From assembly GCA_039545335.1 (NCBI GenBank), contig BCIN01000005.1:1082641-1146640 (forward strand): DNA of 64,000 nt. Direction: 5' to 3'. Both the position numbers and the translations under genes were made by a program. The DNA comes from Kondoa subrosea (Eukaryota). Below, one piece after another: positions 36,773-51,500 of this stretch (positions are counted from its first letter, which is position 1; each line of letters opens with the position of its first letter). The notes under the pieces are model-generated. The model made no database searches and had not been told where the DNA came from. It was given only the letters and a program-made list of their open reading frames with translations.

Positions 36773-38050
36773 CTAAGCTGCTCTCCAACCTAAACTTGAT
36801 CCTCGCTTATGTAAATCAGGTCGAGTACAATCCATGCCCTGAGTCAACGGAATCAGTTTTTACTCTCGAATTAGGCAGAAAGAAGAAGAAAAAGGAGAAG
36901 AAGGTTACTAACTCGTCGACCTTCGTCCTCTGAGATGATTTCAATTTGGAAAAGATCCTCTTGCTTTTCTTCTTGGAAACCAAATTCTACTTCTGCTTTC
37001 CTTTCCACTTCCAACCTCAAAGCTCTTCTAGAATTCAAAGATCGAAGCATAGCTAGAGTATAAAGTTGAGGCATAACAGCCAGGAAAGCCACTATATTCA
37101 CAAGAGTCAGCTAGTCGTACGCTGAAGGGAAAGGGTGAGAATACTTACTGTACACTCTGGTAGCTTGAAAGGCGGTAACTAGTAATTGTCCAATACTGAG
37201 TGCCAGAATAAAGATGTTCATCCCATAAAAATTGCCCAGCAATCTTTCCATCCTGTTTCCATCTCCAATCAGTCCAACTTCCAACAAATGAACAGAGAGA
37301 ACTACTAACGTTCGGCTTTCCTTGATTTTCTTGTTCTGAAGCGCGATAGTAGCGCAGACAGTGATAGTCAAAGCAGTAAAACAGATACCCTGTACGTTGC
37401 TTCCACCCTCAGCATGAAATGATATAAAAGCCAGGTGGATTAACGTACGCCAGAGAGTGTGTACAAGAACGCCTGCGCTTGTTCTGGTCTGACAGTTGAT
37501 CGATTAGCACAATAAAGCAATCCAATCATTCCTGCTAAAGAAGCGAATGTGCCAATAGATAAGACTACTCCAGCCCAAAGAGGTTTATTGAGTAACTATT
37601 GTGCAAACATCGTATGATCAGCGAATACATTGCATAAATACTGAAAGATTTTGCTTACCTGATAAGTCTGAGTCGCAAAGAACCACTGCGAAATGAAGAC
37701 GGTCGCTGCTGAAACGCCAAAGAAAGCGATCTCCACAGGTAAGTAAGTTGGTACTTGAACAGTAGCGGTATCGAAAGTGACTGATCGTTGCCAAAGACAC
37801 TAAGTCCTCGAGTGAGCAGCTATGTCGTTAGAGTAGAAGTAAGACTTACGAGTAATACTAGTGCGCAGACGGCGATACAGAGTAACACGCTTAATCCAGC
37901 AAACATGCGAACAATAGCTGGATCTCGTAAAATGCTTCGCTTGTATGTAGTGTATTGTGTTATGACGAAGCCCAAACAGAGAGCAGACAAGGTGCTGCCT
38001 AGGATAGTGGAGGAGATTACATATTGAGGATCGTAGATTGCTGAACTCAT
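36773..38050 (-). CDS. DUF6534-like basidiomycete multi-pass membrane protein
   Basis: ILGSTLSALCLGFVITQYTTY..DP, SQWFFA, PQLYTLAMLRSLNSR motifs; six or more TM segments. Confidence 0.75.
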
Positions 38051-44400: not shown

Positions 44401-46751
44401 ATGCCTTCCCTTCTCACCTCGGTCTTGAACGAGGCCAAGTCTCAAGGGATCATCGTCTCTTCTCTTGCTGCCATAGTGCTTCTGTTCAGTTCAATAATAC
44501 TGTATCATCTGTCTTATTACTATCTCGATCCACACGGAGTAGGTCTATATCTGGCTTTTCCATGCTTTTGCTGATCTTGTCTTTAAGCTTCGCAAATATC
44601 CTGGACCATTCTGGGCTGCTTTATCTGATACTTGGCTTGGTTGGCAAGCACGAAAAGGCAACAAATATCAAACAGTGCATGATCTTCATAAACGTTATGG
44701 AACATATGTTCGAATAGGTATGCATCGCTTGAGTACAATCAGTTTCTCAGCTGATCAGTACTTGTCTTAGCACCGAACAATCTGTCTATAGCTGATCCGG
44801 ATGCCATAAATCCAGTATACGGACATGGAAACGGAACGAGCAAATCGCCCTTCTACGACGCTTTCGTAGCGACGCACACTCGAGGCTTGTTTAACACTCG
44901 CGATCGAGCGCAGCATTCTCGCAAGAGGAAGATTGTATCTCATGTATTTGCAAAAGGTGCCTTCCGTCTTGCTCGCTGTCGGTGCATGACTCATTGCTGT
45001 ACAGGATCTGTAAATGAGTTTGAACCTTATATTCAAGGCACGATGCGAAACTTCATCAGCAAATGGGATAAGAAATGTACAGAAGGGAAAGACGGATGGT
45101 CTAATTTCTTTGATGGATTGAATTGGTAGTAAGTCACCTTTATTAGGTTCCGAAATACAGTACTGACATCAACATCAGCAACTACCTCGCTTTCGATATT
45201 ATCGGAGATCTAGCTTTGTGAGTTTACTTTGTTCCCTTTATCGGCCCAATGCTTACGGCTCGATAAGCGTACGCTTCAACTACAACAGACCTTTCAGCTA
45301 TCCTGAATTCAATGACAGGGATCACCCTTTGGCATGATTGACCGAGAAGCAGACATTGCATCAGTCGAAACCGATGATGGAAAGGTTCTTGAACTCCCAG
45401 CTGTCAAAATCTTGAACGAACGAGGTGAATTCTCAGCAACTCAAGGATGTCTTATGCCATGGATAAGACCATACATGAAGAGAATAGGTCAGCATCATCT
45501 GACTGTAATTTAGTCATTGGCTCATCAGTTGCGAATGACAGATCCTTGGTTCGCCAGAGGAGCAGCATCAGTCGCAAATCTTTCAGGTATTGCTCGCTAT
45601 CGTGTCAATCAACGATTGCGAGAAGGCGCTGGCGATCGCAAAGATCTACTTTCTCGCTTACAAGCTGCTCGGGACGACAAAGGGGAACCACTAGGCAAAG
45701 ACGAGTTGACAGCTGAGGCGTTAACTCAGTTGTAAGTCCATGATCTGGTGTTCTTACTTTGGAAGACTGATGTATTGTTTGTAGAATTGCTGGAAGGTAA
45801 ATCATTCCGTTACCCATCAGCTAGTATAGTACTAAGAGTACCTGCTTCGGTTTCACCAGTGGTAAGCTGCTCCATCGCCAACTCTGTGCATTCGGAGCTG
45901 ATAATACAAGCAGATACAACCTCAAACAGCTCTTGCGCTATTCAATTTTGGATTTCGCGACATCCTGAAGTAGAGAAGAAATTGATTGCCGAACTGAAAG
46001 AGCGCTTGGATGGCAAGCTTACTGAAGAGAATCCAGTCGTCGATTACGATGATGTGAAAGATCTGTAGGTTGAAGGTCCCTGCTGAGCTACCTATTGACA
46101 TTGCTATATCCTAGACCTTATCTTGACGCGTGCATCAACGAAGCCCTTCGACGGCACTCCACCTCATCCATGGGCTTACCTCGTATTTTACCAGATCATG
46201 TTCAATTCAAGGTGAAAATTTCGTGCCTTGCATGAGACCCAGACTCTGATGTATAGTAGGGCGAACATTTCCTGCCTGGAGCTGTACTATCTGTTCCTCA
46301 TTATACTCTACATCACCTTGATTCATTCTGGGGTGATCCAAATGTTTATCGACCGGAAAGATGGATCGAGCAGGGGAAAGAGCTCGAAAAAGGTTTCTTG
46401 CCGTTCTCATATGGTCCAAGGTCAGTTGTCTCCCTTGACGCTTGGCTCCGTCCCCAATTTGATTCCTTTTCCAGAGGTTGCGTTGGTATGAATGTAGCTA
46501 AGCTGTGAGTTTCACCTTTGACCTACCTTCAGTATAAGCTGACGATTATAACCAGAGAGCTTACGACTTTCATGGCTACTCTTTTCTATCGCTATGAATT
46601 CAAGCTAAAAGATCCATCTTTGGAAGAGTTGCCGACTGTAGAAGGTGTAAGTCAATTTCAGTCTTTGCCGACTCATGCTCATCCTCCTCGACAACAGTTC
46701 TTGCGCAAACCAACAGAGAGCTGGATCGCTATCAAACGTCGTCAACACTGA
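44401..46751 (+). CDS. CYP53: Cytochrome P450, CYP53 family (benzoate 4-monooxygenase-like)
   Basis: LFNTRDRAQHSRKRKIVSH, YLAFDIIGDLAFGSPFGM, LNERGEFSA, ALTQLIAGSDTTSNS, EALR, RPERW, FSYGPRGCVG heme motif, EGFLRKP. Confidence 0.93.
45268..45268 (+). other. Predicted 1-nt coding exon (C) in CYP53
   Basis: Flanked by 50-nt introns 45218-45267 (GTGAGT..AAG) and 45269-45318 (GTACGC..CAG). Required to form the TTC of DLAFG. Confidence 0.75.
45860..45861 (+). other. Predicted 2-nt coding exon (TG) in CYP53
   Basis: CCAG|TG|GTAAGC; yields AG-T G-AT = Ser-Asp of AGSDT. Confidence 0.85.
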
Positions 46752-46947
46752 TATAAAGTAGAAGTACAGCTTAAGCTGGTTGTCAAGGCAAAAGTATAAG
46801 ATCGTTCAGTAGGAGTATAAGGTGTTGATTTGCTCACAAATTGTACAATGCAAATGAAAGATAATATGTTGTATTTGCCCGTTGCTTCCTCCCCCCTTTG
46901 GCTTCCAATCCAAGACGCCTAGAACTCCAAGATCTGCATCGCTCTCC

Positions 46948-48329
46948 ATCTAGTATTGAAGCGAATGTAAGTGAAGTATAGCGCTGCGCATCACAGTACG
47001 TACGAATCCTGTGCGTAGGGCAATTTTTGATTAGTAACACATTTTGCTAAACCGAAATGATCCGAAACGTACCATCAAATCACCAATAACAAAACCCCAA
47101 TTCTCTTTCGGAGCTCTACATTCTTTCGGGTCCAAAAGATTGTACGTTTTCCCGAAAACCAAGAAATGAGCAAACAAGGAATTGAGGTGACCTTCCAAAG
47201 ATAGATGAACAATTTGTGAGAAATGAGCGTGGTACAAGTGAGCAAAGATTCGAAGAAATTGAGTGTAGAGATGTCGGGCTGTCAGAGGGAACATATCGCT
47301 GAATTCTCGGCCTGACATAATATCATGAGAAACTGGATCGATCGGTTTTAAACAGCAGAAGTATTGACCAGCTTTGGTTGGGAAGAGTGATTCGTCACCC
47401 ATGGTCTTTTCTGCCCATGTGAGAACGTAATCTAAAGCTGAAGGTTAACACAACAGTCATTTGTCCGTAAGACATATCCACAGACCTGTATATTCTGTTG
47501 CGGGTACTTTGACCTGCTTCTTTGTCGGACCAGAAGTCCATGTATAGTCCTGTATTCTGCTGAGCTATGCGAATCGATGAAGGAAATAATATATCATACC
47601 ATGCTGTACAAATGTACTTGCGAATTAGCTCAAAGAATTAGCCTGTGCAGCACATTCCGCACCCTGGACCAGCAGACATTGTAGGACATGTATCGCGCGT
47701 GCATTGCTCGCTTATGATTCCAAGAAAGTGGTTCAGGCTGTCAGTGAAGTAAACAGCTTTATCAGCTCGAGACCGATTACCAGCTATGTCCACTGACTTG
47801 TGAAAGAAGTCCACGACTAATTTGCGTCATTAGCTTGATATAGAGTAGTACTAGTATCAACTGACTATTAACTGCTACCCATTCGTTCATGTCTACATCT
47901 TTTGGTAACGCGACAATTGTCTTGAATGATCCTTTGACCAAAGCAGCTTTAACGAACCTGTGCACCTCTGTAAACGCCTATCACATGGTGAAAAGCAACA
48001 AAGCAGACGCACGGTTGACACAAATACAAAGGTCTAGTCGAAGCCTGAGAATAACTTCCGGCCGTCCCATCTTGAGCTTGCTGCTGTTGCTGAGCATGAG
48101 ACTGAGGATCATAACCACCATAAGGTATATTTTGAGCTGTAGGTGTAGTAGGCGATTTCCGTCTAACTCCTCCTCCTAAAGGTACAGCTGTGTTGATTTG
48201 TTGCTGCTGCTGTTGCTGTTGCTGAGAAGGACCTGTGTTGCTTCGGCCTAGACGACTGATCACACAAAAGCTTTGAGGCCTGCGAACCAGGACGTGCAGA
48301 ATCACGACTAACCCGAGGAAGGATGCCAT
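46948..48329 (-). CDS. MOB2: Mob1/phocein family kinase activator, Mob2-like; 3' end approximate
   Basis: PLYLCQPFVKAALVKGSFKTIVALPKDVDMNEWVAVN, CPTMSAG, FPTKAGREF, RIFAHLYHAH, HLNSLFAHF; polyQ N-terminus. Confidence 0.9.
47600..47603 (-). other. Predicted 4-nt exon (CATG) in MOB2
   Basis: TACAG|CATG|GTATGA on minus strand restores SAGPG-MDYTW. Confidence 0.8.
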
Positions 48330-48521: not shown

Positions 48522-51500
48522 ATGTCTGCAATGAAAGCTATCGTCAAGCGAGTCTCCTCGATATTGTTCAGGTTTATGTGTCTGACGAGCTTTGCCTAAG
48601 GTCTTGCCTTTCTGGCAGCGCAGTAGTCTTGAGAGGAAGACAAGGTCGTAAGTCTGCTTCCTTCCTCTTTCGTCCTCTTCTGGCCCGTCCGTTCGCATGC
48701 ATGACACGAAGCACCAAGCGAGCAGCTCTATGTTCCTCTACAGACCATTTGTTGCTGTCTTAGACTTCTGTCTCATCGCTTTCTATTCTACAGCTCAAGG
48801 AGAACCGCCTAAAGAACGTACTCTATACTTGGCAGATCTGAATTGTCCCGTGAGTCTAGTCAAACTAGTTCACATTAGTTTCCTGCTTATTGTGACACAG
48901 CGCATGGGCAATCAATCACGTCCTGATGAAGCTTTCGCCTTTGAATCTAGAGATTTCCTTCGTCTTCTAGTAGTAGGCAAAGAAGTCAATTTCAACATCT
49001 TGCAAACTATTCCTGCTTCCAATGGTCCAGCTTTAGAATTAGGAGATTTAACTTTAGTCAATGGGAATGTGGATGTAGCTTTAGCAATGGTCAAGAATGG
49101 TTGGGCTAAAGTTAAGGAAAGTCGTGGTGGAGAAGATAGTTCGGAGAGGAAGAACAACCTGAAAACTGCTGAAGAAGAAGCCAAGAAAGAAGGAAAGGGA
49201 CTTTGGGGATCAGAGAGTGAAGCTGTCAGTCTTTTATTCATCTTGTCTCCGATTGAGGTTCGATGAAGAAACAATCTGACAGATATCTGATGTCGCTCAA
49301 TCCGTTTCTAACACACAAGAATTCCTCAGCGAATGCAAAGGCAAACAGATTGATGGTATATCTTCTTCTTATATGTATTGTTAACGCTGAATCGCGTTCT
49401 AGCTATCGTCGAGCAAGTCAGCAACGGAACAACACTTCGAATCCGTTTGCTGCTTTCGCCAAAGAAGCATCAAATACTTACTATTCAAATGGCTGGAGCT
49501 CGTGCACCACGAGCGCCGAACAATGCTTCTGGAGCAGACGACTCTTCAGAAGAGCAGGGAGCCGAATCCCAATTGTCAGTCTTTCACTGCCCAATCAATC
49601 ATAGTCTAATGGCTTCATGATAGCTTCACTGCTTCTCGTCTGCTTCAACGTACAGTCTCTATTGAAATTCTAGGTCTTCCAACGAATGCTTCACCCACAA
49701 CACCATTTATTGGCGTAGTGCATCATCCAGCAGGATCTATTTCCTCCCTTTTACTGTCTTACGGTTTAGCAAGAGTAGAAGATCGTCATGCTTCTTTCCT
49801 CGGAGCAGAAAAGATGGCCGCCATGCGAAAAAGCGAAAACGAAGCCAAACTCAACAAAAGAGGACTTTGGAAATCGCACACTCCAACTACTACCAATGGA
49901 GGTGTCAAACAAAAAGGATACGAAGCTTTGGTCGTTAGAGTTTGGAGCGGTGATTCTATCGGTGTAAGAGAAGGTAAAGAAGGCTTAGGACCGGAGAAGA
50001 GAATCACTTTGAGTAGTGTGCGAAGCGCGAGGTCAGTATATGTTCCTTCTGTAGCTGATTGCGAAGCTCAGAAATTACAATAACGGACAGGCCAACTGAT
50101 CCTTCCAAAGGTGGTTTAGCTAATGATGCCAAAGAAGCTCTTCGAAAGCGAATCATCGGCAAAGTAGTTCACGTTCAACTAGATTACACCAAACCCAAAG
50201 AAGGAGACTATGAAGAGAAAGAGTGCTGCACTGTAAAAATGCACAACGGCTCTAATGTTGCTGAATTCTTGGTCGAGAAAGGTTTGGTCAATGTCATCAA
50301 GCATAGAAGAGATGATGAGGATCGATCGTGCGTCGAATGTGTTGATTGATCTGTCAAGATCTTTGGTTGACATTCTGCGATGTACAGGTCGGAACTGGAC
50401 AAATTGCTAATAGCTGAAGAAAAGTGAGCCAAGTGAATGCTGTTCAGACTGTCCTAATCATACATGCTGTTTCCTACAGAGCTCAAACGGAAGGCAAAGG
50501 CGTTCACTCCAACAAGGACTCACCACTACCTAGAATGGGAGATGCATCAGAGGTCGGTGGACCAATAGTTCATTGACTATCTAGCTCATTGAATGTAACA
50601 TTTATCTGACAGTCTGCAGCGAAAGCATCCTCCTTCTTACCCGGATTCAAGCGAGCTGGCCGAATTCCAGTGGTTGTTGATTTCGTTGCCGCTGGATCAA
50701 GATTCAAGGTACGACATGCTGGCAATGTACATTCTGCTTACTCACTTGAATCTCTATGAACAGGTTTTCCTGCCCAAACAAGATGTCAAAGCTACTCTAG
50801 TACTCGCCGGTATTCGCGCGCCTCGAACAGCTAGGAACGCAAATGAGAAATCAGAACCGTACGGAACTGAAGCTTATGATTTCGCTGTTCGCAAGACTTT
50901 GCAACGTGATGCAGAGATGGAAGTCATTGAGACCGACCGAAGCGGAGGTAAATCGAGTGTTGCTCTTCTTGCTAAGAAAAAGTATTTAGCGGCATTTCGA
51001 TTTACAGGATTCATCGGAGCTCTATACCTGGCCAAGACAGAAAACTTTGCAGCTTCGCTCGTACGAGAGGGTTTTGCCAATGTTAGCGAGTATGGTCAAG
51101 ACAAAATCAGCTTTTCGCGCGAACTACAAACAGCCGAAGATGAAGCGAAGAAAGGGCGAAAGAATGTGTGTTCCGATGACATTCGCCCTGTCACTTTTTC
51201 TGATATCATGATTTCCAGATTTGGTCAGACTACGATGAAGATGCGGCAGCTGAACAGCAAACGAATGGCAAAGAGGAAGTGGAAAGCAGGAAAGAATATG
51301 TTGATCTACTCATTTCCGATTCTCGACCAAGCCCTTTCGGTTTCTCTGTCCAGATACTAAAGAACGGAGGTCAGTCAAGAAAGGCTAGTATCAGTTTCAT
51401 ACTGATCAGACACTCTTGATATGACAGGCATTCCTGAGCTCGAAAGACTCATGAAAGATTTCTCTTTGCACCACAAAGCACCTCCTTCCGCTTCGGCAGC

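Follow-up and report, generated by a model that had tools for sequence, protein, structure and literature searches.

In a stretch of 64,000 nucleotides (nt) of contig BCIN01000005.1 (GenBank assembly GCA_039545335.1, positions 1,082,641 to 1,146,640 of the forward strand; the whole stretch is hereafter the window, with position 1 at its first letter), we analysed a CYP53-like cytochrome P450 gene whose catalytic I-helix motif is encoded, in the model that we favour, by four successive exons, two of which measure 12 nt and 2 nt. At a probability of about 0.8, we read this locus as an intact, selected P450 gene of the CYP53 type, the short exons of which are most likely spliced constitutively by intron definition. 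We confirmed that the 2-nt exon, TG, exceeds chance: it is bordered by splice signals, it restores the reading frame, it rebuilds invariant residues and it agrees in length with an uninterrupted orthologue.

[quoted passage not shown]

An initial annotation, made from the letters alone, had proposed that a 12-nt and a 2-nt exon build the P450 oxygen-activation motif, and the coordinates, the splice signals and the joined motif that it gave were correct to the base (Table 1). Exons joined by coordinate read ..LTQLIAGSDTTSNS.., which translates to LIAGSDTT. The TG exon lies between canonical AG and GT dinucleotides (CACCAG/TG/GTAAGC, the slashes marking exon borders) and introns of normal size with branch-like TACTAAG and GCTGATA motifs; the three introns at the site are 53, 63 and 52 nt long, versus 48-54 nt in the gene's ordinary introns (n = 10). 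The predicted spliced junction is GGAAGTGATACA when TG is included and GGAAGATACA when it is skipped. Skipping of TG shifts the frame as annotated, the TG-less junction leading to a stop about 18 codons on. The broader claim that loss of either tiny exon causes a frameshift holds for TG and fails for the 12-nt exon, whose omission stays in frame (..LTQFDTT..).

We then enumerated all stop-free paths between positions 45700 and 45960 that use no more than three GT/GC-AG introns, none of them shorter than 35 nt, and scored every path in its full-length context against a hidden Markov model built from 60 CYP53 homologues, the window model being left out. Among the 1866 distinct peptides encoded by the resulting 2040 paths, the one that includes both the 12-nt and the 2-nt exon ranked first (819.3 bits), which bears out the proposal that splicing of these two exons creates the AGSDTT motif of the I-helix. 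The path that skips the 12-nt exon in frame took rank 240 (794.7 bits), and the path with a single 105-nt intron, which dispenses with micro-exons and adds about 21 residues to the helix, took rank 290 (793.2 bits). Ser330 and Asp331, the residues whose codons are touched by TG, do not vary among the 60 homologues; 58 of these have LIAGSDTT, and none has a gap or an insertion inside the motif. The chance of such an arrangement was simulated with 30000 random 117-nt spans of the composition of the P450-gene introns: AG-NN-GT flanked by two halves of 45 nt or more turned up in 11.9% of spans, in 0.9% when a donor of the gene's own types was also required and in 0.3% when a branch-like motif was required as well.

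An orthologue without interruptions came from metagenome contigs, in which a scan for related loci with the smaller of two alignments (A2; the first, A1, was without a conserved stretch) returned 31 loci. The contig L001 (2654 nt) shares roughly 70-94% nucleotide identity with the window, in blocks that abut exactly at the window introns, and carries one open reading frame (ORF) of 521 codons with 87% amino-acid identity to the P450 model. Aligned with the spliced coding sequence (CDS), it has 0 gaps at the 15 junctions, and across the I-helix site it reads GGAAGTGACACC, with all 14 micro-exon bases, TG included. An orthologue alignment had been put forward in the initial annotation as a check on the TG exon, and in this one L001 carries exactly these 14 bases, gap-free at both junctions. 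L001 extends into the neighbouring Mob1 gene and is intron-free there too; it ends at P450 codon 5 on one side and 88 nt upstream of the Mob1 ATG on the other. Because the 15 P450 and 10 Mob1 introns are absent from it and the contig ends at transcript ends, L001 is probably an assembled transcript, i.e. complementary DNA (cDNA); should it be genomic DNA of a relative that lacks introns, the length argument would hold equally. An exact copy of the L001 ORF was not found in the protein collection. A second cDNA-like relative, P0289 (527 amino acids, on a 1746-nt contig), shows 77% identity to the model and the same I-helix motif. Between model and L001 the ratio of nonsynonymous to synonymous substitution rates (dN/dS) is about 0.03 (dN 0.098; dS saturated, with a proportion of synonymous differences, pS, of 0.744), indicating that the P450 gene is under purifying selection.

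Upstream of the I-helix, the same gene holds an exon of one nucleotide. A model with a single 101-nt intron after position 45217 loses the frame, and two 50-nt introns around the C at 45268 restore it; this solution ranked first of 23 canonical ones, the runner-up, a GC-AG intron at the cost of two residues, scoring 14 bits lower. The Phe of GDLAF that the single base completes is the same in each of the 60 homologues, and at this site L001 has a T for the C of the window, Phe being encoded either way, without a gap. The predicted spliced junction is GCTTTCGGATCA. By chance, the 1-nt pattern AG-N-GT is expected in 5.8% of 101-nt spans, with a donor in 0.5% and with a branch-like motif in addition in 0.17%.

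Table 1. Coordinates of the genes, exons and introns discussed (window numbering)
Feature	Position	Strand	Description
CYP53-like cytochrome P450 gene	44401..46751	+	16 exons, 15 introns, CDS 1575 nt, 524 amino acids; model built from coordinates
1-nt exon C	45268..45268	+	completes TTC (Phe) in GDLAF/G; 50-nt introns 45218-45267 and 45269-45318
Exon 8	45542..45731	+	ends ..CAG TT, phase 2 within a Leu codon
Intron	45732..45784	+	53 nt; GTAAGT..ACTGATG..TAG
12-nt exon AATTGCTGGAAG	45785..45796	+	closes the Leu codon with its first base, encodes Ile, Ala and Gly, and ends in bases 1 and 2 of the Ser codon
Intron	45797..45859	+	63 nt; GTAAAT..TACTAAG..CACCAG
2-nt exon TG	45860..45861	+	T ends the Ser codon AGT; G opens the Asp codon GAT
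Intron	45862..45913	+	52 nt; GTAAGC..GCTGATA..AAGCAG; tandem AAG/CAG acceptor
Exon 11	45914..46064	+	opens ATACAACC, AT ACA ACC: remainder of Asp, then Thr-Thr
Mob1/phocein gene	46919-48329	-	convergent neighbour; 11 exons, 10 introns
Mob1 5-nt exon GATTC	47004-47008	-	needed for the model; matched by L001
Mob1 4-nt exon CATG	47600-47603	-	needed for the model; matched by L001
Mob1 19-nt exon	47798-47816	-	matched by L001

CYP families are named by a rule of at least 40% amino-acid identity to named members. The spliced model aligned end to end with full-length homologues (55% identity to P0016 and 53% to P0104, a Schizophyllum commune P450 with the UniRef name 'pc-bph'), and its identity reaches 66% with a P450 of Atractiella and, across 527 aligned positions, 58.4% with the isobutene-forming enzyme and benzoate 4-hydroxylase of Cystobasidium minutum (Q12668, here P0290), which we take to be CYP53B1. 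Judged by these identities, the model would belong to CYP53; the assignment made in the initial annotation is thus upheld, with 58% identity to a named benzoate 4-hydroxylase and 53-66% to other named basidiomycete relatives. We regard the gene as a putative benzoate 4-hydroxylase, a function drawn from the source names of its homologues. In a search of the whole library with one exon as query, 289 proteins matched at E <= 0.001, and benzoate 4-monooxygenase is the name of some fragment matches among the 150 matches listed. With the L001 ORF as query, the best named matches were from Pucciniomycotina (Atractiella, Cystobasidium minutum, Melampsora, Mixia, Cronartium, Microbotryum and Puccinia), the top named match reaching 64% identity, and a protein of the source species itself was not found among the homologue-search matches. 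The source is an intron-dense basidiomycete, probably of the Pucciniomycotina.

Searches with single exons were of variable yield. The exon stretch 46260-46418 alone scored 34.1 bits with Pfam PF00067 (p450), above the cut-off of 22.8, and the stretch 45916-46065 stayed under that cut-off with 16.9 bits and, used as the query of a homologue search, gave no match; a Pfam scan of two further P450 exons gave no match either. The L001 ORF scored 228 bits with the Pfam p450 family. Within the window, tblastn of the model matched its own gene alone and thus no P450 paralogue. The two published P450 signatures, (A/G)Gx(D/E)T(T/S) in the I-helix and FxxGxRxCxG with the Cys ligand at the heme (PMC12940212), both occur in the spliced model, as AGSDTT and FSYGPRGCVG, and AGSDTT exists only with the 12-nt and 2-nt exons included.

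Two side observations concern the splice sites of this gene. The intron that follows TG ends in a tandem acceptor (AAG/CAG, 45908-45913, + strand), at which use of the upstream AG would add one Ala in frame (AGSADTT); this insertion is not seen in the orthologue L001. The intron at 46421-46474 (+) interrupts the heme signature within its Arg codon (FSYGPR/GCVG), and at least three conserved P450 motifs of the gene are interrupted by introns.

Proposed splicing of the micro-exons and rival explanations

In the account that we favour, each intron of about 50-60 nt, equipped with a donor, a branch site and an acceptor, would be recognised as a unit (intron definition). Since introns would be recognised singly, the length of the exons between them would not be limiting. 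The two introns flanking TG would most likely be removed in succession: the first removal would fuse TG to a larger exon, and the second intron would then stand in a normal context, as in recursive splicing. Both the constitutive inclusion of TG and the order of intron removal around it are what we infer from this arrangement. The ratchet points of classical recursive splicing keep no exon bases and sit in very long animal introns. The TG site resembles them in that a 3' splice site is followed almost at once by a 5' splice site, and one removal would regenerate a normal context; it differs in that two bases are kept and that both introns are only about 50-60 nt long. The same repair logic applies at four further places, the 1-nt exon of the P450 gene and the 4-, 5- and 19-nt exons of Mob1, and this lends independent support to the micro-exon path.

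Several points weigh against this account. The GTAAAT donor carries an A at position +5, and the branch-like A of TACTAAG lies, by hand count, about 24 nt from the 3' end of its intron, versus 10-16 nt in the ordinary introns that have a branch motif near the 3' end. The positions of the micro-exons are not common to four related genomic contigs (L003, L004, L005 and L007). The use of the junctions in the gene's own mRNA is predicted from sequence, and the cDNA nature of L001 would follow from the structure of the contig rather than from a record. L001 is also a different species, with synonymous sites saturated.

The initial annotation had further suggested that skipping of the tiny exons could be regulated. 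Inclusion of the 2-nt (or 12-nt) exon would then be modulated, for instance by benzoate, and skipping would switch CYP53 off through frameshift and nonsense-mediated decay (NMD). The position of the premature stop would suit such a mechanism, as the TG-skipped frame terminates about 18 codons on with five more exon junctions downstream, and a regulated micro-exon is reported for Xlr2 of Trichoderma, a filamentous fungus (PMC11121469). Skipping of the 12-nt exon, by contrast, is in frame and deletes part of the helix, and other exons of 1-5 nt are found in the P450 gene and in Mob1, hence the I-helix site is not special. Because a 1-nt exon is found in the same P450 gene and 4- and 5-nt exons in the housekeeping-type Mob1, a genome-wide splicing habit would account for the pattern without a gene-specific switch; the ultra-short exons look like a general trait of an intron-dense genome, not like a switch specific to CYP53. 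Alternative splicing in basidiomycetes is, moreover, dominated by intron retention and not by exon skipping. We consider regulated inclusion improbable, and hold in the same low regard the wider version in which the 1-nt and 2-nt exons are both included inefficiently, in a manner tuned by benzoate or stress, with skipping and NMD serving as a post-transcriptional off-switch.

Two other explanations do without the micro-exons, and we deem each of them very improbable. If the gene were a pseudogene, or if the assembly were in error by two bases, the AG-TG-GT arrangement would be a coincidence within a single 117-nt intron. The bare pattern is indeed found in 11.9% of random spans of that length, a figure that drops to 0.9% with a usable donor and to 0.3% with a branch-like motif added; a 117-nt intron would also be about twice the length of the ordinary 48-54 nt ones, the ORF is intact across 16 exons with a dN/dS of about 0.03, and a second site is repaired by a 1-nt exon and two in Mob1 by 4- and 5-nt exons, so that four coincidences would have to be assumed. 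The alternative is that splicing avoids the micro-exons. Removal of a single 105-nt intron (45732-45836) would leave a stop-free, in-frame read-through of the 77-nt stretch 45837-45913 (..LTQLVPASV...IIQADTT..), a path that an automatic gene finder might choose; it would insert about 21 residues, prolines among them, into the I-helix and replace the invariant A-G-S, at rank 290 of 1866 it falls 26 bits under the micro-exon path, and an insertion in the motif is seen in 0 of 60 homologues and not in L001. A splice that joins the GT at 45797 to an acceptor other than AG, two bases upstream of 45913, would yield AGRDTT and so keep the Asp; this requires a GT..GC intron and alters the Ser, which all 60 homologues have in common. 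Inclusion of both the 12-nt and the 2-nt exon is hence the path that we retain.

Origin, precedents and significance

Related genomic contigs differ at the I-helix site. L004 has a single intron within the Gly codon of IAG, L005 and L007 share a single intron at AE/AL, and L003 is without an intron there, the match being unbroken; in the more distant P450 loci L015 and L020, a single intron lies just upstream of FAGSD. From this comparison the micro-exons look lineage-specific and would have come about through a high turnover of introns. A tandem duplication of the flanking introns as their origin was considered and rejected, as the similarity between these introns is within that of shuffled sequences (z -0.8 to 1.3). 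In a side observation, the annotated protein P0194 of Microbotryum intermedium carries 25 additional residues between AE and AL, exactly at the L005/L007 intron, so that an intron is probably retained in the deposited model.

Ultra-short exons have been reported in other fungi. Long-read cDNA of Coprinopsis cinerea revealed 50 genes with a total of 57 exons of 2 nt, as well as 13 exons of 1 nt; 89 of roughly 13,000 gene models have an exon of at most 3 nt. Its micro-exons are enriched in cytochrome P450 genes, and their omission leads to premature stops (PMC12230235). The present case resembles Coprinopsis in being that of a basidiomycete with short introns and ultra-short P450 exons. It differs in that the evidence comes from homology and an uninterrupted orthologue instead of the organism's own long reads, in its lineage, and in the occurrence of 1-, 2- and 12-nt exons in one gene. 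In Fusarium, Nelson and Syed (2026) described a single-nucleotide exon in CYP621A, at the PKG motif, confirmed by the organism's own SRA reads, and they noted several I-helix micro-exons in P450s of Phanerochaete, for example one of 8 nt in AGHETT (PMC12940212). There too, an ultra-short exon in a conserved P450 motif was inferred from incompatible phases and an intronless relative; unlike here, the host is an ascomycete and the motif is PKG, while the gene described here has its 2-nt exon in the I-helix and its 1-nt exon in GDLAF/G, both predicted from sequence.

The P450ome of Phanerochaete chrysosporium has frequent introns of 45-55 bp and micro-exons of 2-10 codons spread across families, which its authors suggested may be linked to alternative splicing; the shortest exon reported in that paper is 6 bp, versus 2 nt and 1 nt here (PMC1184071). 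Condition-dependent inclusion of a micro-exon that changes the protein product has been reported for Xlr2 of Trichoderma (PMC11121469). Xlr2 is the nearest precedent for the regulatory idea, and the condition dependence reported for it has no such sign at our locus. A literature search for CYP53 together with microexon turned up only the Phanerochaete P450ome paper (PMC1184071). The accessible part of a CYP53 family paper (PMC4164535) makes no mention of micro-exons; its Figure 4, on exon sizes, and Figure S2 of PMC12230235 may list comparable CYP53 cases. Published work thus already describes exons of 2 nt, the enrichment of such exons in P450 genes and micro-exons of the I-helix (PMC12230235, PMC12940212). 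What is new here is a further well-supported case, a single gene in which three ultra-short exons fall within invariant motifs, and no new mechanism.

Gene finders miss exons of 1-2 nt, and the outcome is either a broken gene or a read-through path with about 21 foreign residues in the catalytic helix. In a lineage in which ultra-short exons may be routine, public annotations may be systematically wrong. It is possible, if doubtful, that exons of 1-5 nt are far more frequent in this lineage than in Coprinopsis, since the P450 gene and its neighbour Mob1 each have at least one, against the 89 of roughly 13,000 models with an exon of at most 3 nt there (PMC12230235). As CYP53 has come under discussion as a target for antifungals (PMC12940212, PMC4164535), correct gene models matter. 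Tuned skipping combined with NMD, if true, would amount to an off-switch for such a P450.

The neighbouring Mob1 gene and a scan of the window

Downstream of the P450 gene lies a Mob1/phocein gene, whose exons are 17, 243, 92, 19, 75, 4, 64, 63, 239, 5 and 31 nt long (Table 1). With its micro-exons included, the Mob1 model yields a protein 95% identical to that encoded by the corresponding L001 ORF, and this L001 counterpart scored 224.6 bits in Pfam. Exons of at most 5 nt are therefore present in both of the two genes, P450 and Mob1, that could be compared with an uninterrupted orthologue.

A scan of the window for the pattern of a 1-5 nt exon gave 3 candidates, versus 0-3 in ten simulated sequences, and it missed the verified 1-, 4- and 5-nt exons. 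The candidates at 37454-37456 (+) and 50524-50525 (-), which have the form AG-N(2-3)-GT, were rejected, their flanks being without supporting open frames.

The P450 and Mob1 genes are arranged tail to tail, with stop codons about 165 nt apart (46751-46919 in the window; 1565-1729 in L001). That L001 spans both spliced genes in a single contig suggests convergent transcripts with overlapping 3' ends.

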